IMG/VR virus record: IMGVR_UViG_3300017917_001910
Span: 1-64,000 of that record
DNA from: a virus
Lineage: Duplodnaviria; Caudoviricetes
Direction: 5' to 3' (one strand)
Length of the DNA stretch: 64,000 nucleotides
Below, in pieces: positions 1-29,430 of this stretch. Position numbers and translations under genes: made by a program. Position 1 is the first letter of the stretch; each line of letters opens with the position of its first letter. Under the pieces are notes generated by a model. That model ran no database searches, was not told where the DNA came from, and saw only the letters and a program-made list of their open reading frames with translations.

Positions 1-93
1 ATGCTTTCAGTTTTTCAATTAAAGTTTTCATATATTTTAAATTTTAGTTTATCAAATCAAGTTCAGTGTAAGCACTACGCTTATACTCAACCG

Positions 94-273
94 TTATAAA
101 ACATTTTTTAATTGGTTCTTCCAATATTCTTTCGTTCTATACAATTTAAAAGAATAATCCTGTTCCATTCTATCTCTTTTTTGTTCTCTTAAACTTTCTT
201 CATCTAAATACTTCAATTTCTTTTCAATTGTATCATATTCATCAGGTATCTTTAATAATTCTCTGTATATCAT
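94..273 (-). CDS. Cassette-borne hypothetical protein, 59 aa (MIYRELLKIPDEY...KNVL)
   Basis: Manual translation; the TAA stop lies inside the GTTA core at 93-96. Confidence 0.55.
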   Translation of the reverse strand: MIYRELLKIPDEYDTIEKKLKYLDEESLREQKRDRMEQDYSFKLYRTKEYWKNQLKNVL

Positions 274-286
274 AAAAAACGTTTTA

Positions 287-400
287 TAACAACAAATATA
301 AGCAATTATTTCATTACTTTAAAATAAATGTTGTTGGTTAATAATTATTTTTGTTCTTCTAATTTAGTTTAGTTATAACTGCTTATATTTGTAACCGTTA
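287..400 (+). repeat. attC-like hairpin site
   Basis: TAAC-AA-CAAATATAAGCAATTAT ... ATAACTGCTTATATTTG-TAACC-GTTA. Confidence 0.8.
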
Positions 401-501
401 TGTACAAGTGGGGTTGCCAGCTTCTCCAAGCCTGATGCGTTTTTAGTTTAAAGTCGGTATCCGTCACAACCGATTGCAGTTAATTACCCCCACCTGATAC
501 A

Positions 502-628
502 TAACAGCGTATATAAGAAATTGCGGTTTTGACTTTGGAAATGTAAGTCGCACAACTTTACATCTACACCCCATCAAAGTTACCATTTTGTGCAAAATAC
601 CGCAACTTCTCATATACGCAAAACGTTA
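502..628 (+). repeat. attC-like hairpin site
   Basis: TAAC-A-GCGTATATAAGAAATTGCGGT ... ACCGCAACTTCTCATATACGC-AAAAC-GTTA. Confidence 0.8.
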
Positions 629-841
629 TAAGCCATTTATGTAATCCTCAATAGCCTCTAAGTGTGCCAACATTAAAAATGCTTTATGGCATTGTTCATT
701 TTCTTTCGGTTGCTTACCTTCTTTTAATAGCGGTTCTGCTAATCTACCAGCGTTCACTTGCAATTTAAACTTTAAACGGCTTATAACATCGGCTATATGC
801 AATGCCTTTCCGTTTTCATCAAATACTTGTATATCAATCAT
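626..841 (-). CDS. Cassette-borne hypothetical protein spanning a core site (probable start MIDIQVFDENG at 841)
   Basis: ORF track 626..892; ALHIADVISR is encoded across the TAAC core at 784-787; stop lies in the GTTA core at 625-628. Confidence 0.6.
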   Translation of the reverse strand: MIDIQVFDENGKALHIADVISRLKFKLQVNAGRLAEPLLKEGKQPKENEQCHKAFLMLAHLEAIEDYINGL

Positions 842-906
842 TTTTGTATATTTATTAAGTTTTGTGCAAGTTTCACCATCGGCACTGCACATAGCCGTAA
901 GCGTTA
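784..906 (+). repeat. attC-like hairpin site
   Basis: TAAC-AT-CGGCTATATGCAATGCC ... GGCACTGCACATAGCCG-TAAGC-GTTA. Confidence 0.8.
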
Positions 907-922
907 TAGGTAATAAAATTTA

Positions 923-1117
923 CTACCATTGTCGTATAATTGAAAGTATTTCTTCCAATTCCATTCCATCACTAATCATTTCCGATATATCAGTTTCTTG
1001 TGAAGTGGTGAAGGTTGGTTCTCCATCAGGTATCTTATCAATACCATATCGTTTCTCAATCAACTTTTCTTCCCTAACTTTCAGTTCTACTTGTTTGAAT
1101 AATTTATCTTGTTTCAT
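923..1117 (-). CDS. Cassette-borne hypothetical protein
   Basis: 64-aa ORF lying wholly inside cassette body 903-1143. Confidence 0.6.
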   Translation of the reverse strand: MKQDKLFKQVELKVREEKLIEKRYGIDKIPDGEPTFTTSQETDISEMISDGMELEEILSIIRQW

Positions 1118-1139
1118 ATCCGTAAATTTTACATACCTA

Positions 1140-1229
1140 TAACAAAGTGTATAAGTAATGTGGCTAATAAAGTTTTGTTCTAAGTTGAAAGTATGTGCAA
1201 AGCCACACTACTCATACACTCAACCGTAA
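1140..1229 (+). repeat. attC-like hairpin site with mutated right core (GTAA)
   Basis: TAAC-AA-AGTGTATAAGTAATGTGGCT ... AGCCACACTACTCATACACT-CAACC-GTAA. Confidence 0.75.
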
Positions 1230-1401
1230 TACATCATTCTTAACCAATTTGTATCCTTCTTGTTCAGCTATTTTTTCCAACCAATGTTTAATGTAAAAAT
1301 TCACATCATCATCTGCTTCTTCGTGTTCCCATCTTACAACTTGTCTTAAATTATATTCCCAAGAGTATTCTCATTGAATTTTTCCATAGCAGAACGATGT
1401 A

Positions 1402-1530
1402 TAACATCAGATATATTCAAGTTTTCTTCTGACTCGTTAAATCTTTTAATGTGTTTTAAATCTTTCATCTTCGTATGTTATTTTAGTGTATATATTAAAA
1501 AGAAAACCTAAATATATCTGAGTATCGTTA
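1402..1530 (+). repeat. attC-like hairpin site
   Basis: TAAC-A-TCAGATATATTCAAGTTTTCT ... AGAAAACCTAAATATATCTGA-GTATC-GTTA. Confidence 0.75.
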
Positions 1531-1731
1531 GCGTAAATTGCCACTATTACAATATTTGTCTGTGCAAAATGGTTTTCCCATAGAATAACCACTTCTACCA
1601 CATTTTTGACAGTTATTAGGTGGCAACTGTCCACTAACACCAAATAAACGCAATAACCGTGCTTTTGCTTCATTTGATGTTATATGTCCTTCTCTAAGGT
1701 CTGATGCTATTTGTAAAATTTCTTCTTTCAT
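1528..1731 (-). CDS. Cassette-borne small Cys-rich (possible Zn-finger) protein spanning a core site
   Basis: CQKC...CTDKYC; LLRLFGVSGQ crosses the TAAC core at 1635-1638; stop in the GTTA core at 1527-1530. Confidence 0.6.
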   Translation of the reverse strand: MKEEILQIASDLREGHITSNEAKARLLRLFGVSGQLPPNNCQKCGRSGYSMGKPFCTDKYCNSGNLR

Positions 1732-1761
1732 ATCGTTACTGCGTTTATTTGTGAACCGTTA
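1635..1761 (+). repeat. attC-like hairpin site
   Basis: TAAC-AC-CAAATAAACGCAATAAC ... GTTACTGCGTTTATTTG-TGAACC-GTTA. Confidence 0.8.
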
Positions 1762-1770
1762 TAAGTAATA

Positions 1771-1932
1771 TTATTTTTGTTTTGAATTTTTATAACTATC
1801 GTGTGTTTTATTAACAGCATCTTGAACACTTTCCATCCAAGTTCTAAATATTGGTCTGAAGTTAAATATACTCATCTCAGCATCCCAAATTACTTTTGGT
1901 ATTTCAATTTTAATAATTTTTCGGTTTTTCAT
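1771..1932 (-). CDS. Cassette-borne hypothetical protein, about 53 aa (MKNRKIIKIEIPKVIWDAEM...)
   Basis: Manual translation inside cassette body 1758-1980. Confidence 0.5.
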   Translation of the reverse strand: MKNRKIIKIEIPKVIWDAEMSIFNFRPIFRTWMESVQDAVNKTHDSYKNSKQK

Positions 1933-2055
1933 AATTTAATTTTTTTATATGGTAAAACAAAAATAATACATACTTATAACAACAAGTTTGTGAAATAAAC
2001 CGCTTTCGATTTGTCCGTAAGTTAATCGGTTAATTGAATTTTTGTGTTTCATATA

Positions 2056-2089
2056 CTTAAAGATAAGAAAAACATTTCATATTTACAAA
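2056..2089 (-). promoter_or_regulatory. Bacteroidota-type promoter (-33 TTTG / -7 TATCTTTA) reading into array 1
   Basis: Minus strand TTTGTAAATATGAAATGTTTTTCTTATCTTTAAG; nearly identical to 16535-16568. Confidence 0.6.
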
Positions 2090-2586
2090 TAAAAGTCGCT
2101 GTGATATGGTAAAGTATTGTTATTCAATGTATTATTTTTAGTTTCATCCTCTAATATACGTTCTTCTGTAGAAAGAAGTCCTTTTCCGAACTTCTTTAAT
2201 CTTTTCCAATAACGTTCTTTAATACGGTTAGATATACGAATTGGATTTCCTTCATCATCAATTCGTACGAACTTCATTTTTGTATGAGTTACAATTTCTT
2301 GAATGCCTGTATATACGTTATGCTTTCTGGCTTCAATATATAATGTTATAGAAGTATTTCCGAATTCCGATACTTCTCCATAAATCTTTATAATATTTCC
2401 TAACTTTATGGGCTTTTTAAAGATAAACTCATCTACTTTTATAGTAATCATTCTAGGTGTATCGCAAATTTGAGCAGAATATACTGCAGAAGCTTCATCT
2501 ACCCACCCGACTAATGTACCTCCAAACATATTGTTATGAATACCAATATCCGATGCTTTACATATATGTGTACTTATTAGTTCCAT
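2083..2586 (-). CDS. Acyl-CoA thioesterase (hotdog fold)
   Basis: HNNMFGGTLVGWVDEA...F.KPI.LG...GNTSI...FVRIDDEG, YciA-like motifs. Confidence 0.85.
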   Translation of the reverse strand: MELISTHICKASDIGIHNNMFGGTLVGWVDEASAVYSAQICDTPRMITIKVDEFIFKKPIKLGNIIKIYGEVSEFGNTSITLYIEARKHNVYTGIQEIVTHTKMKFVRIDDEGNPIRISNRIKERYWKRLKKFGKGLLSTEERILEDETKNNTLNNNTLPYHSDFYL

Positions 2587-14241: not shown

Positions 14242-14263
14242 ATTTTAATATAATGATAATACC

Positions 14264-15061
14264 TTATATAGGCAAATTTATTTTAGATAAAAGTTGATTT
14301 GATACATGAGTGTAAATTTCAGTAGTTTTAATATTAGAATGACCTGCAAGTTTTTGTATTATTCTAATATCCGTCCCGGATTCTAATAAGGCAGTAAAAC
14401 AAGAATGTCGTAGCGTATGAATATGTCCCGATGAATCTATATATTTTTTATAAATTTTTTGACAACTACCTATTGAATAATAAAGAGAATCTTGCCCGTT
14501 AAATAGATATTCTATAGGCTTATATTGTTTAAAATACTCTCTAAGTAATGTTAATACATTTTCTGAGAGCGGTACAATCCTATCTTTTCTGCCTTTAGCA
14601 TTTTTAATGTGTATAAGCATCCTTTTCGAGTCAATATCCTCAATTTTTAGATTGACTATTTCAGACACTCGTAATCCAACTGAGTAGGTTAGTGTTAAGA
14701 TTGCTTTATGTTTAAGATTTTCTATTTTTTGCAGTTGTGTTTTGATAAGATTACTATCAACTACCTTCGGTAATTTCTTTTCTGATTTTGGTCTTTCTAT
14801 TTTAGATAAATGAATGTCTTTTTTATTTAGTATATACTTAGAAAATAATTTCAATGCTCCTATATATTGATTTTGTTGACTACAAGAAGTATATGGATAT
14901 TTTTCAAGGAATGAGACTATCTGTTGAGTTCTTACTTGATATGGGTCTTTAATTTTTTCCGTTTCTAAAAAAAGTTTTAAATAAGAAATATATAACTTGA
15001 TACTGTTATTAGAATAGTTTTTATATCTTAATTTTTCTTCAAAAATTTTAAGAATTTTCAT
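14264..15061 (-). CDS. Tyrosine recombinase, integron-integrase-related (SAM-like N-terminal domain)
   Basis: GLRVSE, AKGRKDRIVPL, HTLRHS, DIRIIQKLAGHSNIKTTEIYTHVS; R-K-H-R-H-Y catalytic set intact; no IntI-specific insertion. Confidence 0.92.
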   Translation of the reverse strand: MKILKIFEEKLRYKNYSNNSIKLYISYLKLFLETEKIKDPYQVRTQQIVSFLEKYPYTSCSQQNQYIGALKLFSKYILNKKDIHLSKIERPKSEKKLPKVVDSNLIKTQLQKIENLKHKAILTLTYSVGLRVSEIVNLKIEDIDSKRMLIHIKNAKGRKDRIVPLSENVLTLLREYFKQYKPIEYLFNGQDSLYYSIGSCQKIYKKYIDSSGHIHTLRHSCFTALLESGTDIRIIQKLAGHSNIKTTEIYTHVSNQLLSKINLPI

Positions 15062-15097
15062 GTTTAAATTATTGATTTTATTAGAGATTTAGGTAGG

Positions 15098-15130
15098 TTA
15101 TGTATATATAATAGTTATATGCAATGCTAC
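15098..15130 (+). other. attI-like site
   Basis: First GTTA core (15114) lies 53 bp upstream of the integrase start and, unlike all other cores, has no preceding hairpin arm (TATGTATATATAATA-GTTATATGCAATGC). Confidence 0.55.
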
Positions 15131-15196
15131 GTTTCTGCTTCGTATTAAGTTTGGTGTATAATCTTTTTGTTTTATTTTTTCTTCCACCACACAAAA

Positions 15197-15634
15197 TTAA
15201 CGATTATATACCATAAAAGGTGCTGTTGAATCTGTTTCAAAATTGTTATCTTCTTCTGAAACTCTAAAACCATTTTTAATATACCAATCTACTAATTCTT
15301 GTTGATTTAAACCACCGCTTGTTTTAATATTATTTGATATTGATGCTCTTAAAGATAGTGGTACACCTGTTTTATCAGAATATTTTTTTAGTTTATTAAG
15401 TAATTTAGTTGCGTATCCTTTACCTTTAATATCAGACCAAATTTCAGATATATAAATAGAAACTTCACCATCAGATAATTGTTCAATATTTAATTCAGCG
15501 TGTGCATATCCATCATCAATTTTAACTTCGTCTAATTCAAAATACAATAATTTATTTAATCTTGAATTTTCAAATATTTTCTGTTCATTCAAATATTCAC
15601 GTATAGTAGTTGCTATAAATTTTCTTAATTCCAT
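15197..15634 (-). CDS. Cassette-borne GNAT-fold protein (probable start MELRKFIATTIREYLNE)
   Basis: KGKGYATKLL (acetyl-CoA-binding motif A) and LVDWYIKNGF. Confidence 0.7.
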   Translation of the reverse strand: MELRKFIATTIREYLNEQKIFENSRLNKLLYFELDEVKIDDGYAHAELNIEQLSDGEVSIYISEIWSDIKGKGYATKLLNKLKKYSDKTGVPLSLRASISNNIKTSGGLNQQELVDWYIKNGFRVSEEDNNFETDSTAPFMVYNR

Positions 15635-15753
15635 ATTATCAAATAGTTTTATTCTATATATAAATATCCAAATTTTAATTTCCCACTCACAAAAATAAAA
15701 CAAAAAGGTTCATCTCTCGTATCAAAGTTTGTAGGTTAAAACCGCACTGCATA

Positions 15754-15842
15754 TAACAAAATGTATAAGAAAGTTTGCTATCAAGTTTAGTACTAATTTG
15801 AAAGTTCATCATAAGCAAACCTTCTCATACACCCAACCGTTA
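15754..15842 (+). repeat. attC-like hairpin site
   Basis: TAAC-AAAA-TGTATAAGAAAGTTTGCT ... AGCAAACCTTCTCATACA-CCCAACC-GTTA. Confidence 0.8.
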
Positions 15843-15853
15843 TGTTCAATGAA

Positions 15854-16147
15854 TCAAAAACCAATTTCTTCTAATCTTTTTTTAATCGCTTTAAGAACTT
15901 TACTTCTTATTTTATTTGATTTGTTCATACCACTCCAAAGACCTTGTAGTTTAACTAACTTTTCCATTCCTTTTTCACCATTACATTTAGATATATCAAA
16001 TAAAATATCTTCTAATTCCTTATCTTCCATTGTGTATATTTTCTTATCTTCCATTGTGTAGATTTTTGATTCACTAAACATAACATCAGATATATGTAAT
16101 TTTTTATCTGTGTTATCAAGTTCTGTGTTCTTATTATCTTTATTCAT
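15854..16147 (-). CDS. Cassette-borne hypothetical protein spanning a core site
   Basis: KLHISDVMFS crosses the TAAC core at 16081-16084. Confidence 0.65.
   Translation of the reverse strand: MNKDNKNTELDNTDKKLHISDVMFSESKIYTMEDKKIYTMEDKELEDILFDISKCNGEKGMEKLVKLQGLWSGMNKSNKIRSKVLKAIKKRLEEIGF
16019..16066. repeat. 24-bp tandem duplication (KIYTMEDK x2)
   Basis: CTTATCTTCCATTGTGTA(T/G)ATTTT twice. Confidence 0.9.
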
Positions 16148-16204
16148 ATTATTTAAGTTTTGTGTTTCAATTTAAGAAAAAACTACATATATCTGTGACC
16201 GTTA
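16081..16204 (+). repeat. attC-like hairpin site
   Basis: TAAC-AT-CAGATATATGTAATTTTTT ... AAAAAACTACATATATCTG-TGACC-GTTA. Confidence 0.8.
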
Positions 16205-16213
16205 TACGTAATG

Positions 16214-16468
16214 CTAATCATACAGCGTTACCTTTCCATCTTTATAATCATAACTTCCACTACGACCCAACACCCAAAAAAGAACACCTGCGTCATTTGC
16301 ATATTCTTTCTGTGTTTCAATATCACCACATTCTCTTGCGTTTTCAAGTCCTGCCAACGCACATCGTAGTCGTTCTTCTATCTCAGAAGCACTACGCATA
16401 ACAACAGATAAAAGCAATTTTTCATCACTTCTATTTGAGTTATCTTGCATAATTTTACTTTCGTCCAT
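16214..16468 (-). CDS. Cassette-borne hypothetical protein spanning a core site
   Basis: KLLLSVVMRS crosses the TAAC core at 16399-16402. Confidence 0.65.
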   Translation of the reverse strand: MDESKIMQDNSNRSDEKLLLSVVMRSASEIEERLRCALAGLENARECGDIETQKEYANDAGVLFWVLGRSGSYDYKDGKVTLYD

Positions 16469-16511
16469 TTTATTTAATTTTAGTTAAAACTGCTTTTATC
16501 TGCAACCGTTA
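16399..16511 (+). repeat. attC-like hairpin site
   Basis: TAAC-AA-CAGATAAAAGCAATTTT ... AAAACTGCTTTTATCTG-CAACC-GTTA. Confidence 0.8.
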
Positions 16512-16534
16512 TAAACAATGCTACTTTTATTATA

Positions 16535-16568
16535 CTTAAAGATAAGGAAAACAATTCATATTTCCAAA
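16535..16568 (-). promoter_or_regulatory. Bacteroidota-type promoter reading into array 2 and the integrase
   Basis: Minus strand TTTGGAAATATGAATTGTTTTCCTTATCTTTAAG (TTTG-N20-TATCTTTA). Confidence 0.6.
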
Positions 16569-16621
16569 TTTTATTATAATTTTAATGTATTGATATTCAG
16601 TATGTAAGGCCTTACTATTCA

Positions 16622-17125
16622 TTATGAAAAATGTTTTTTTATTGTTATAGGATATAATCCTTTATTGTTTTGAGTAATATCAAACTGCAGAAGAATTGCT
16701 CCATTATAATTTATTTTCTTAAATAAAGTATCATTATTACTTAATAAAGCATCTACTACCAACTTTCGCATTTCATTTAAATCATACATTACATAGGTCT
16801 TAGTATATGTATTTACATGATAGATTCGGTCAGCTCGGCTCGAAAAGAACCAACCGAGCTTTCCGTGATCTTGAATCTCTACTTTAAAATGATGGTCCCA
16901 ATCGCAATACAAATTATTTTTACAGTCTAGATAATATTCTCGTAACCACTCTGGCTTCTTAATACTAAAGTCATAACCGCGCTTTTGATGTTCTACTTGG
17001 CCTGCATAATCAGTTACTTCATAACCATATGATTGTAATATTGATTTAAGCCATTCTTCTCCGATTTGTCCTTTGGTGCCAGTTACTGGAAATCTCTCTG
17101 TTAAGGTTGTATTGTATTGAGCCAC
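16622..17125 (-). CDS. Putative PD-(D/E)XK-fold nuclease
   Basis: G..GE...Q.RGYDF...DCK...VEI...GW...S.AD pattern. Confidence 0.55.
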   Translation of the reverse strand: MAQYNTTLTERFPVTGTKGQIGEEWLKSILQSYGYEVTDYAGQVEHQKRGYDFSIKKPEWLREYYLDCKNNLYCDWDHHFKVEIQDHGKLGWFFSSRADRIYHVNTYTKTYVMYDLNEMRKLVVDALLSNNDTLFKKINYNGAILLQFDITQNNKGLYPITIKKHFS

Positions 17126-28309: not shown

Positions 28310-28321
28310 TTTGTAATATAC

Positions 28322-28400
28322 TTAAATATAAGTAATACATTTCATATTTCCTAATGTTTTTTAAAATAAGAGTAAAAGAGCCCGAAGTTTTACGTTCGAG
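28322..28400. repeat. About 80-bp promoter/terminator direct repeat, copy 1 (copy 2 at 29350-29430)
   Basis: TTAAATATAAGTAATACATTTCA.ATTTCCTAAT.TTTTTTAAAATAAGAGTAAAAGAGC.CGAA...TTCGAGC. Confidence 0.85.
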
Positions 28401-29216: not shown

Positions 29217-29349
29217 TTTTTTCTTGTCGTAACTGCCGTTTCTAATTTCGACCCATTTATAAAAATATGATCTCCTTTGAATTGTGCTATAGCCTTAGAT
29301 AATCTATAATTTTGACATCTAACTGAATTAAATACTGAATCAGCACTAT

Positions 29350-29430
29350 TTAAATATAAGTAATACATTTCAAATTTCCTAATATTTTTTAAAATAAGAG
29401 TAAAAGAGCTCGAAATTTTTATATTCGAGC
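29350..29430. repeat. About 80-bp promoter/terminator direct repeat, copy 2
   Basis: Near-identical to 28322-28400. Confidence 0.85.

Follow-up and report, generated by a model that had tools for sequence, protein, structure and literature searches.

In integrons, a cassette consists of a promoterless open reading frame (ORF) followed by a recombination site, attC. These sites are approximately 57-141 nt long, and extrahelical bases, together with an unpaired central spacer, mark the bottom strand. Seen from this strand, the order of elements is array, attI, intI. The strand that recombines is antisense to the ORFs, which diverge from intI. Integrons are regarded as marginal in phages. In the pdif modules of Acinetobacter plasmids, Xer-type exchange occurs at duplex dif-like sites of 28 bp. 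In T4-type phages, promoter-stem-loop cassettes are thought to be shuffled by homologous recombination, with no dedicated recombinase. Here, we describe an array of small cassettes, array 1, at positions 1-2089 of a virus record (IMG/VR IMGVR_UViG_3300017917_001910; Duplodnaviria, Caudoviricetes). The window analysed is the first 64 kb (64,000 nt) of this single 115,252-nt record, which has ~30% G+C, no end repeats, and an estimated completeness of 59%. We conclude, with a probability of roughly 0.78, that array 1 belongs, as a set of cassettes, to an integron-like system of site-specific recombination, which occurs in freshwater phages and uses a short Xer-type recombinase.

Smyshlyaev et al. 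2021 call an IntI-specific insertion, in the catalytic domain, essential for an integron integrase. Clusters of at least two attC sites, lacking an integron-integrase nearby, are known as CALINs. Integrons are regarded as rare in Bacteroidota: the IntegronFinder 2.0 article lists only In0 elements from earlier work, and one complete integron in Salinibacter. Qi et al. 2023 (PMC9892861) reported 17 small CALINs in virulent phages, and described no dedicated phage recombinase. The same study reports recombination by IntI1 of attC sites from phages, one of them in Polaribacter phage P12002L. Our literature search, with most subscription journals outside its reach, found no description of a recombinase-linked phage system.

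Layout and hairpin sites of array 1

A first-pass annotation of this DNA described seven bodies, alternating with attC-like hairpins, in the region 1-2089. A repeat search, and reading of the sequence, bear this out. Each body has private inverted arms, and the intervening hairpins are imperfect and 82-121 nt long. The bodies are at 93-290, 397-505, 625-787, 903-1143, 1226-1405, 1527-1638, and 1758-1980. Complete hairpins are at 291-396, 506-624, 788-902, 1144-1225, 1406-1526, and 1639-1757. On the plus strand, bodies open with GTTA (GTAA at 1226) and close with TAAC; the arms extend these cores. Note that both arrays described below, and the recombinase, are encoded by the minus strand of the window, which we call the gene strand. 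On this strand, the features of array 1 are as follows.

2053-2090, minus strand: promoter-like element of 38 nt, heading array 1 on its upstream side as read along the gene strand
1758-2052, minus strand: cassette 1 (promoter-proximal), with a half-site carrying a 35-aa leader ORF (1945-2052), a GTT box, body 1758-1980, and ORF 1771-1932 (53 aa)
1527-1757, minus strand: cassette 2, site 1639-1757 and body 1527-1638, with ORF 1528-1731 (67 aa)
1226-1526, minus strand: cassette 3, site 1406-1526 and body 1226-1405, with an interrupted ORF (1346-1468, then 1212-1304)
903-1225, minus strand: cassette 4, site 1144-1225 (82-nt class) and body 903-1143, with ORF 923-1117 (64 aa)
625-902, minus strand: cassette 5, site 788-902 and body 625-787, with an ORF from 892 or 841 to 626 (88 or 71 aa)
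397-624, minus strand: cassette 6, site 506-624 and body 397-505 (109 nt, with G+C-rich arms of 17-19 nt)
93-396, minus strand: cassette 7, site 291-396 and body 93-290, with ORF 94-273 (59 aa)
1-92, minus strand: 5' part of an eighth cassette, its site cut by the contig start, and its body and the remainder of the array lying beyond the record

The repeat search paired body arms at 93-110/273-290 (18 nt, 94%), 625-639/773-787 (15 nt, 93%), and 1769-1783/1954-1968 (15 nt, 100%). Hairpin arms were paired at 292-309/375-392, 1407-1428/1500-1521, and 1641-1657/1735-1751. The arms quoted as examples in the first-pass annotation flank bodies, and the hairpins have arms of their own. Hence, private inverted repeats occur in array 1 as two sets, interleaved with each other. 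Each arm does pair with its own partner, as claimed, but the quoted examples do not belong to hairpins. No direct repeat families were found in array 1 by the same search, so the array is not a product of simple repetition.

To count sites, we used a scanner with a fixed grammar: AAC, a spacer of 4-6 nt, a 12-nt arm, a loop, a second 12-nt arm, a spacer of 0-2 nt, and GT[T/A]. In strict mode, at least 11 of 12 arm positions must match. The scan detected 5 sites in positions 1-2100, while 500 dinucleotide shuffles gave a mean of 0.01 and a maximum of 1; equally regular arms in shuffled DNA had been named beforehand as grounds for rejecting the array. In the entire 115,252-nt record, there were 7 strict gene-strand sites, all in 1-2000 or 15700-16520. 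The genome-wide count, also proposed earlier, is thus confined to two arrays. The strict scan misses the site at 1144-1225, where the AAC box is degenerate (TAC), and the truncated site at 1-92. On the gene strand, each site has an AAC-ended box, a one-sided bulge of 3-5 nt, a long stem, a loop, and a GTT-started box. Hence, by our own scan, the features of attC-type sites are present: an AAC-ended inverse core, a GTT-started core, paired inner boxes, and an imperfect hairpin.

We then examined related sites. Relatives of a recombinase encoded further along the window (see below) were confirmed in 107 of 151 candidate viral contigs, and the best 80, with 52-88% identity, were fetched with their flanks. 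At these 80 loci, sites are 46-130 nt long and form three classes, near 46, 86, and 123 nt. For the 86-nt class, we aligned 83 sites, of which the window contributes two; site 1144-1225, of cassette 4, was thus aligned with 82 others. The AAC and GTT boxes are invariant in all 83. Furthermore, 15 of 22 consensus stem pairs persist through changes on both sides, as the first-pass annotation proposed in calling the pairing covariation rather than simple repetition. Four fixed stem positions are occupied by G.T (G.U-type) pairs. The spacing between box and stem differs by junction type, at either 3-5 nt or 0-2 nt.

The six complete hairpins of array 1 fold as single-stranded DNA, with minus-strand z-scores of -2.8 to -5.4. 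In five of the six, the minus strand folds better than the plus strand. For example, the site of cassette 2 has values of -15.7 kcal/mol (minus) and -14.2 kcal/mol (plus). The site of cassette 6 reaches -26.1 kcal/mol on the minus strand (z-score -5.4). Mismatches are also asymmetric. Read on the gene strand, hairpin stems contain 440 G.T and 58 A.C mismatches, with G in the 5' arm in 397 of the G.T pairs. Body arms contain 164 G.T and 6 A.C.

Logically, bodies with terminal inverted repeats, a GTTA start, and a TAAC end could be miniature elements, inserted in tandem by a transposase encoded elsewhere. The arms, though, differ between bodies, with only a core of 4-7 nt in common. No target duplications were seen, and the association is with a tyrosine recombinase rather than a transposase. 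Since the interleaved hairpins would also be left unexplained, we regard this possibility as very remote.

A short Xer-like recombinase adjoins array 2

The second array, and the only recombinase, lie between positions 14264 and 16569.

14264-15061, minus strand: Xer-like tyrosine recombinase of 265 aa (Pfam PF00589, 1e-34; the sole PF00589 match in 115 kb)
15062-15112, minus strand: attI-like junction, the last AAC box followed directly by a TATTATATATA-type motif, ~50 nt before the recombinase start codon
15113-16569, minus strand: array 2, three cassettes and a promoter-like element (16532-16569)
15757-15839, 16084-16201, and 16402-16508, minus strand: sites of array 2
15197-15703, 15854-16147, and 16214-16468, minus strand: ORFs of array 2

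At the 80 viral loci, 262 of 268 sites are upstream of the recombinase, and on its strand. Note that the DNA available was 391 kb upstream and 559 kb downstream, so sampling bias runs against the upstream count. In 158 cases, the upstream site is no more than 2 kb from the recombinase. Many contigs encoding relatives begin just upstream of the recombinase gene, which fits assembly breaks in variable arrays. The TATTATATATA-type junction motif is kept, at 80% or above, across 63 unique loci; in the record it has a single gene-strand occurrence. More widely, there are over 120 clusters of 265-aa homologues in metagenomes, with 75-90% identity; where these are named, the JGI label is XerD.

The 38-nt promoter-like element has five copies, counted at up to 9 mismatches of 38, all on the gene strand: 2053-2090, 16532-16569, 28318-28355, 29346-29383, and 112980-113017 of the record. 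It is also conserved in two related strains, L212 and L213. It may be a Bacteroidota-type promoter (TTTG, spacer, TAnnTTT). Hence, read along the gene strand, the platform consists of the promoter-like element, cassettes, attI-like junction, and recombinase. Of the array 2 ORFs, 15197-15703 gave only weak GNAT and RHH hints with Pfam.

The recombinase scores below the cut-off of every Xer model and of TIGR02249, the model for integron integrase. The NCBIfam bit scores are 185.6 for XerA_Arch (cut-off 220), 157.4 for TIGR02249 (cut-off 265; matched in two stretches), 154.9 for XerD, and 151.8 for XerC. Its best solved relatives are XerA (4a8e), followed by IntI4 and XerD, and residues that we take to be the catalytic motifs align with those of XerA, XerD, and IntI4. 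The alignment with IntI4 (2a3v) is split (query 8-177 and 208-260), leaving 30 residues where IntI4 has 78. Hence, the IntI insertion is absent. By these comparisons, the enzyme is Xer-like, and not an IntI. Equally, it does not fall among the Xer dimer resolvases, which use a single duplex dif site and whose genes have no linkage to arrays of sites: the models are below cut-off and the gene is linked to arrays of sites in viral loci.

The resemblance to Xer proteins bears on another explanation, where junctions are duplex dif-like sites and bodies are modules swapped, as for pdif, by the phage Xer-like enzyme or by host XerC/D. The best profile and structure matches, to XerA, XerD, and XerC, are in agreement, as are the inversely oriented core boxes flanking bodies. 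Conversely, box-stem spacings of 3-5 nt at one type of junction, and 0-2 nt at the other, do not suit a fixed central region. The private sequence that covaries is ~17-21 bp long, much more than a protein half-site would occupy, and strand-asymmetric mismatches would be meaningless in a duplex. Unlike dif or pdif, the sites are long private hairpins, and the arrays are tied to a phage enzyme. We consider exchange at duplex dif-like sites to be highly unlikely.

Probable unit of exchange and folded strand

The pairing of boxes bears on which pieces belong together. Boxes flanking the same body pair over a median of 10 bp, and over at least 14 bp in 132 of 298 cases. For boxes flanking the same hairpin, the median is 5 bp, with at least 14 bp paired in 4 of 298. 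This contrast is expected if crossovers within boxes joined bodies and sites. We also compared contexts, using 942 sites and 681 bodies, the latter giving 135 families with two or more members, built by single linkage. Thirteen of the 135 families occur in more than one context. In nine of these, the upstream site is kept and the downstream site has changed; the reverse is true of one, and both sites have changed for three. Similarity between moved cassettes stops directly after the ...TAAC box, as seen in the printed junctions. Flanks at the breakpoints have only about 5-7 nt in common.

The location of ORFs leads to the same boundary. From 499 bodies, we collected 409 ORFs spanning at least half of the body. 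The ORF ends at or before the AAC box in 364 cases, and 70 take the TAA of the box as their stop codon. At the other end, 146 of 409 start within the upstream site. In array 1, such starts are at 1731, 1468, 892/841, and 613. Thus, the ORF of cassette 2 (1528-1731) starts in the hairpin loop and has its stop codon in the AAC box. Similarly, the ORF of cassette 5 starts inside the site and stops at the TAA of the AAC box. The larger class of site often encodes a leader peptide with an LNISDV end, read through the stem and GTT box; the loop of the cassette 3 site has one. Considering phage arrays overall, 320 of 478 bodies have only sense ORFs and 6 have only antisense ORFs. Together, the linkage counts and ORF boundaries indicate that the mobile unit is, on sequence comparison, a site plus the ORF downstream of it.

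The individual cassettes of array 1 vary in condition. The body of cassette 1 has a counterpart, with 83% identity over 243 nt, at another locus (L015), where two different sites flank it. The site family of cassette 3 has 72-95% identity to sites at 14 other loci with different flanks. Its AAC box (1226-1232) is degenerate, having mutated to TAC, and cassette 3 may be in decay and fused with the adjacent cassette. For cassette 6, the sole candidate ORF (464-613, 49 aa) is of doubtful coding status, and body 397-505 may encode a small RNA. Positions 283-370, in cassette 7, are 91% identical to the left half of a site in LR756500.1, an uncultured phage sequence of 462 kb. Separately, LR756500.1 has its own array with the same grammar (L001, 397228-409316); the right arm of the matching site differs, and recurs elsewhere at that locus. 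Searches of PHROGs found no family for any of nine cassette or neighbouring ORFs, and only the recombinase matched.

Many of these observations would also be expected of regulatory RNA or DNA stem-loops between small early genes, acting as terminators, in RNase processing, or in translation control. Shuffling would then be a by-product of homologous recombination between conserved stem-loops, as has been proposed for T4-type cassettes, which likewise have small accessory ORFs in hyperplastic regions, with stem-loops between them mediating shuffling. A G.T bias in the mRNA sense, start codons in loops, very conserved families of site, and arrays positioned behind a promoter-like element are all consistent with such roles. 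Several properties point away from them. The AAC and GTT boxes are invariant, and the attI-like junction is tied to one family of recombinase; T4-type cassettes are not known to have a dedicated recombinase, AAC/GTT boxes, or cassette-private box pairing. Breakpoints fall at the edge of the box, where so few flanking nucleotides are common, and the boxes that pair belong to one cassette and have a whole ORF between them. On bacterial chromosomes, the same sites occur with ORFs on the other strand (see below), so this strand cannot serve in mRNA there. Finally, Rfam produced no matches in 1-2700, at E values up to 1, either to the hairpins or to body 397-505. We consider purely regulatory hairpins to be unlikely.

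Returning to an integron-like array, the G.T bias, a cassette boundary that falls at the AAC box, and the arrangement of ORFs fit together if recombination acts on the folded gene strand. We lean towards this assignment, and the ORFs of bacterial arrays, which have the opposite strand and the classical layout, support it. Compared with classical integrons, there are many similarities. Both have a recombinase of the Xer/IntI group, AAC/GTT boxes, and imperfect private stems, here in sites of 46-130 nt. In both, the first box of a cassette pairs with the first box of that cassette's own site, an attI-like junction is beside the recombinase, and the cargo ORFs are small and very diverse. The better-folding strand, which has array, attI, and recombinase in that order and itself encodes the recombinase, may correspond to the bottom-strand view of an integron. 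There are also differences. The phage enzyme, at 265 aa, has no IntI insertion. The phage ORFs occupy the folding strand and run in the same direction as the recombinase, so that each site precedes its ORF on the 5' side and is able to provide the start codon. In the phage, a promoter-like element stands at the array end remote from the recombinase. The sites have a one-sided bulge of 3-5 nt, and fixed G.T pairs, which may or may not be functional equivalents of the extrahelical bases described for attC. Hence, the system works like an integron, yet departs from integrons in two defining respects: the missing IntI insertion, and a site positioned 5' of a sense-strand ORF. Neither the nature of the enzyme, nor the minus-strand location of the ORFs, nor the grouping of each site with its downstream ORF, was part of the first-pass annotation.

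On the gene strand, then, a cassette begins after ...TAAC, with a hairpin site comprising the 3-5 nt bulge, a private, covarying stem of ~17-21 bp, and a loop from one of three size classes. The GTTA box follows, then a short body, usually with one small ORF, and the next ...TAAC, often providing the stop codon. The private body arms reflect GTTA and TAAC boxes that are parts of the same cassette; in a circular cassette, these would pair over 10-24 bp. This anatomy is shown by the sequences, as are the covariation, the link to the recombinase, the changes of context, and the polymorphism among strains; for catalysis, substrate, active strand, and point of cleavage, we propose the following. 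The 265-aa Xer-like recombinase would recognise the folded single strand and catalyse strand exchange at the AAC box of the gene strand, the presumed point of cleavage. The site and downstream ORF would thereby move as a unit, between arrays and between phages. Transcription of the array would be driven from the promoter-like element at the upstream end.

Some aspects of the data weigh against our conclusion. First, the attC assignment rests on a scanner designed from this very window. Second, the linkage count is small (9:1:3) and derives from single-linkage families. Third, evidence of movement is comparative, from assembled contigs, and most inter-cassette joints have sides of 20-38 nt, which is weak. 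Fourth, given the missing IntI insertion, activity of the recombinase on folded DNA is an assumption. So too is action of the 14264 enzyme on array 1. Fifth, because families of site are highly conserved, homologous recombination between them could contribute to shuffling; one hairpin core of 34 nt is exact in at least 120 viral stretches. Finally, the G.T bias could also suit RNA structure in mRNA, and A.C mismatches on the other strand could be the recognised features instead.

Strain differences, the far end of array 1, and related systems

Related strains differ in array content. Strain L212 has 97.6% identity to the record over a flank of 1,354 nt (window 3400-2047), with similarity lost exactly below the promoter-like element. 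At this locus, its array comprises three different cassettes and closes with an attI-like junction, followed by the opening 12 codons of a recombinase and a stop codon. After this stump are an unrelated gene and another copy of the promoter-like element. In strain L213 (89% identity, 197 kb contig), the promoter-like element is directly before the same unrelated gene, so that the site is empty. This gene is absent from the 115 kb record, which fits array 1 running off the contig. Separately, the third cassette body of L212 (5905-6010) has no obvious ORF; it contains a motif resembling the T-arm of a tRNA (GGTTCGAATCC), and its ends pair over a long stretch. As a candidate tRNA, it received no call from ARAGORN.

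We also compared the record with four metagenome runs (X1-X4), labelled pond, aquatic, and lake-water. Contigs from X3 and X4, two lake runs from two studies, diverge left of 2047. The strains in these runs join 14246 to 16630. Hence, the recombinase, array 2, and promoter-like element are missing as one block of 2,383 nt (14247-16629). At the joint, the polymerase gene is directly against ORF 16622-17125, with 3 nt in common. In run X1, the probable source of the record, body 1758-1980 adjoins three different sites, although short-sided joints among these are weak. Joints with sides of 20-38 nt were not accepted as products of recombination, and were treated as graph branches at shared site sequence.

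The first-pass annotation proposed that array 1 is either CALIN-like, and served in trans by the recombinase at 14264, or has its own integrase past the edge of the contig. Either may be true. No recombinase was found within 12 kb to the right of array 1, and the 14264 enzyme is the single one in the 115 kb record. The end where a recombinase is expected, downstream on the gene strand, is left of base 1 and so beyond the contig. At this edge, bases 1-5 had been described as the tail of an arm with its partner at about 71-87. This fits. The first 40 nt matched three metagenome contigs, with only 57-68 nt (the site of cassette 8 itself) in common and no recombinase; one of the three (L210) contains the left arm that the record lacks, which is complementary to 71-87. 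No viral contig had an exact match to the first 60 nt.

Since L212 has an attI-like site and a stump of 12 codons at this position, we favour the view that array 1 had its own recombinase; possibly, it has now decayed to a CALIN. In runs X1 and X2, a joint from 16569 to 15024 connects the first 37 nt of a recombinase gene to a promoter-like element, at a depth near that of the phage. The 15024 end coincides with the end of the L212 stump. Because the record has one copy of this 37-mer, the contig possibly derives from DNA outside the record, perhaps the far end of array 1. This joint is among those treated as graph branches, and serves only as a lead that array 1 may end in a recombinase stump.

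Arrays with no recombinase are common in these phages. Among 24 arrays with at least three sites, identified from pattern matches, the recombinase is 161-901 nt downstream in 10 and absent, within at least 2.5 kb, in 14. Several viral contigs bear more than one array. A candidate second array in a relative (G001) was rejected: ordinary genes come after its thioesterase homologue. The attC-like cassette interpretation made at first pass is thus strengthened from several directions, namely the invariant boxes and covariation, the position of sites upstream of one recombinase family, changed contexts that break at the AAC box, differences between strains, and the frequency of recombinase-less arrays.

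The cargo is hyperdiverse. We counted 523 distinct array ORFs of at least 60 aa, some of which may sit between detected sites without being cassettes. These form 453 clusters, with a median length of 89 aa. The 150 longest representatives contain 39 Pfam families, each in one or two members. Examples are C5, N6/N4, and MT-A70 methylases, Tad6 (anti-Thoeris), NUDIX, SmpB, DnaJ, GrpE, and RNA ligase.

Around the arrays, minus-strand genes are densely packed at 2-22 kb of the window. Among their products are a family B DNA polymerase, an HNH/NUMOD3 endonuclease, a thioesterase, a metallophosphatase, and a glycosyltransferase. Beyond the window, at the other end of the contig (113750-115252 of the record), tRNA-like genes form a minus-strand cluster. 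Hence, this end carries tRNA genes instead of an array, and no terminal repeat was found.

Relatives of the system extend to cultured phages and to bacteria. Recombinases with 35-40% identity are annotated as integrases in Cellulophaga and Polaribacter phages. In Polaribacter phage Leef_1 (L004), small ORFs are upstream of the integrase, GCCAAC/GTTGGC-type hairpins are between them, and a conserved motif containing TAAC is just before the integrase gene. Two cultured marine flavobacterial phages (L002 and L003), having an integrase with 35-40% identity, also have small ORFs upstream of it. The closest relatives in genome contigs (49-67% identity) are in short contigs of Bacteroidota metagenome-assembled genomes. 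At ~42-44% identity, relatives are found in contigs of Chryseobacterium, Epilithonimonas, and Flavobacteriales (L263, L265, L267, L268, L273, L286, L293, and L298), where arrays of ~120-nt sites, with the same grammar, precede the gene. In these bacterial arrays, ORFs are on the opposite strand: among 20 bodies, 14 have only antisense ORFs and 1 has only sense ORFs. This is the classical integron layout. The host of the carrier phages is probably a member of the Bacteroidota.

In Polaribacter phage P12002L, sites with this grammar, including the loop motif of the 46-nt class, lie between methyltransferase genes. The strict scan gave no matches in this phage, and the sites were found by reading intergenic stretches; no homologue of the 265-aa recombinase was found. 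The sites we read may or may not be those assayed in PMC9892861. Like the phage CALINs presented there, the arrays described here are phage-borne attC arrays with methyltransferase cargo and without IntI. In contrast to those, a conserved 265-aa enzyme adjoins arrays in the 107 confirmed viral stretches, and an ORF polarity and attI-like junction are defined.

It is possible, at somewhat less than even odds, that an integron lineage, so far unrecognised, is common to Bacteroidota and their phages, and is driven by a short Xer-like integrase that lacks the IntI domain. Bacterial arrays would keep the classical arrangement. In phages, the ORFs would have been flipped onto the recombined strand, with the site doubling as a 5' leader, and anti-defence and accessory genes would be traded between widely differing genomes. 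Arrays such as array 1 would be trans-served satellites or decayed platforms. The system could reveal how Xer recombinases gave rise to the recognition of folded DNA, and how a recombination site comes to be read through as coding sequence. If a Xer-like enzyme with no IntI insertion does drive attC-type cassette arrays, an IntI-based criterion for finding integrons misses a whole lineage, and phages gain a dedicated, sequence-independent means of swapping small accessory genes, such as methylases and a Thoeris inhibitor.

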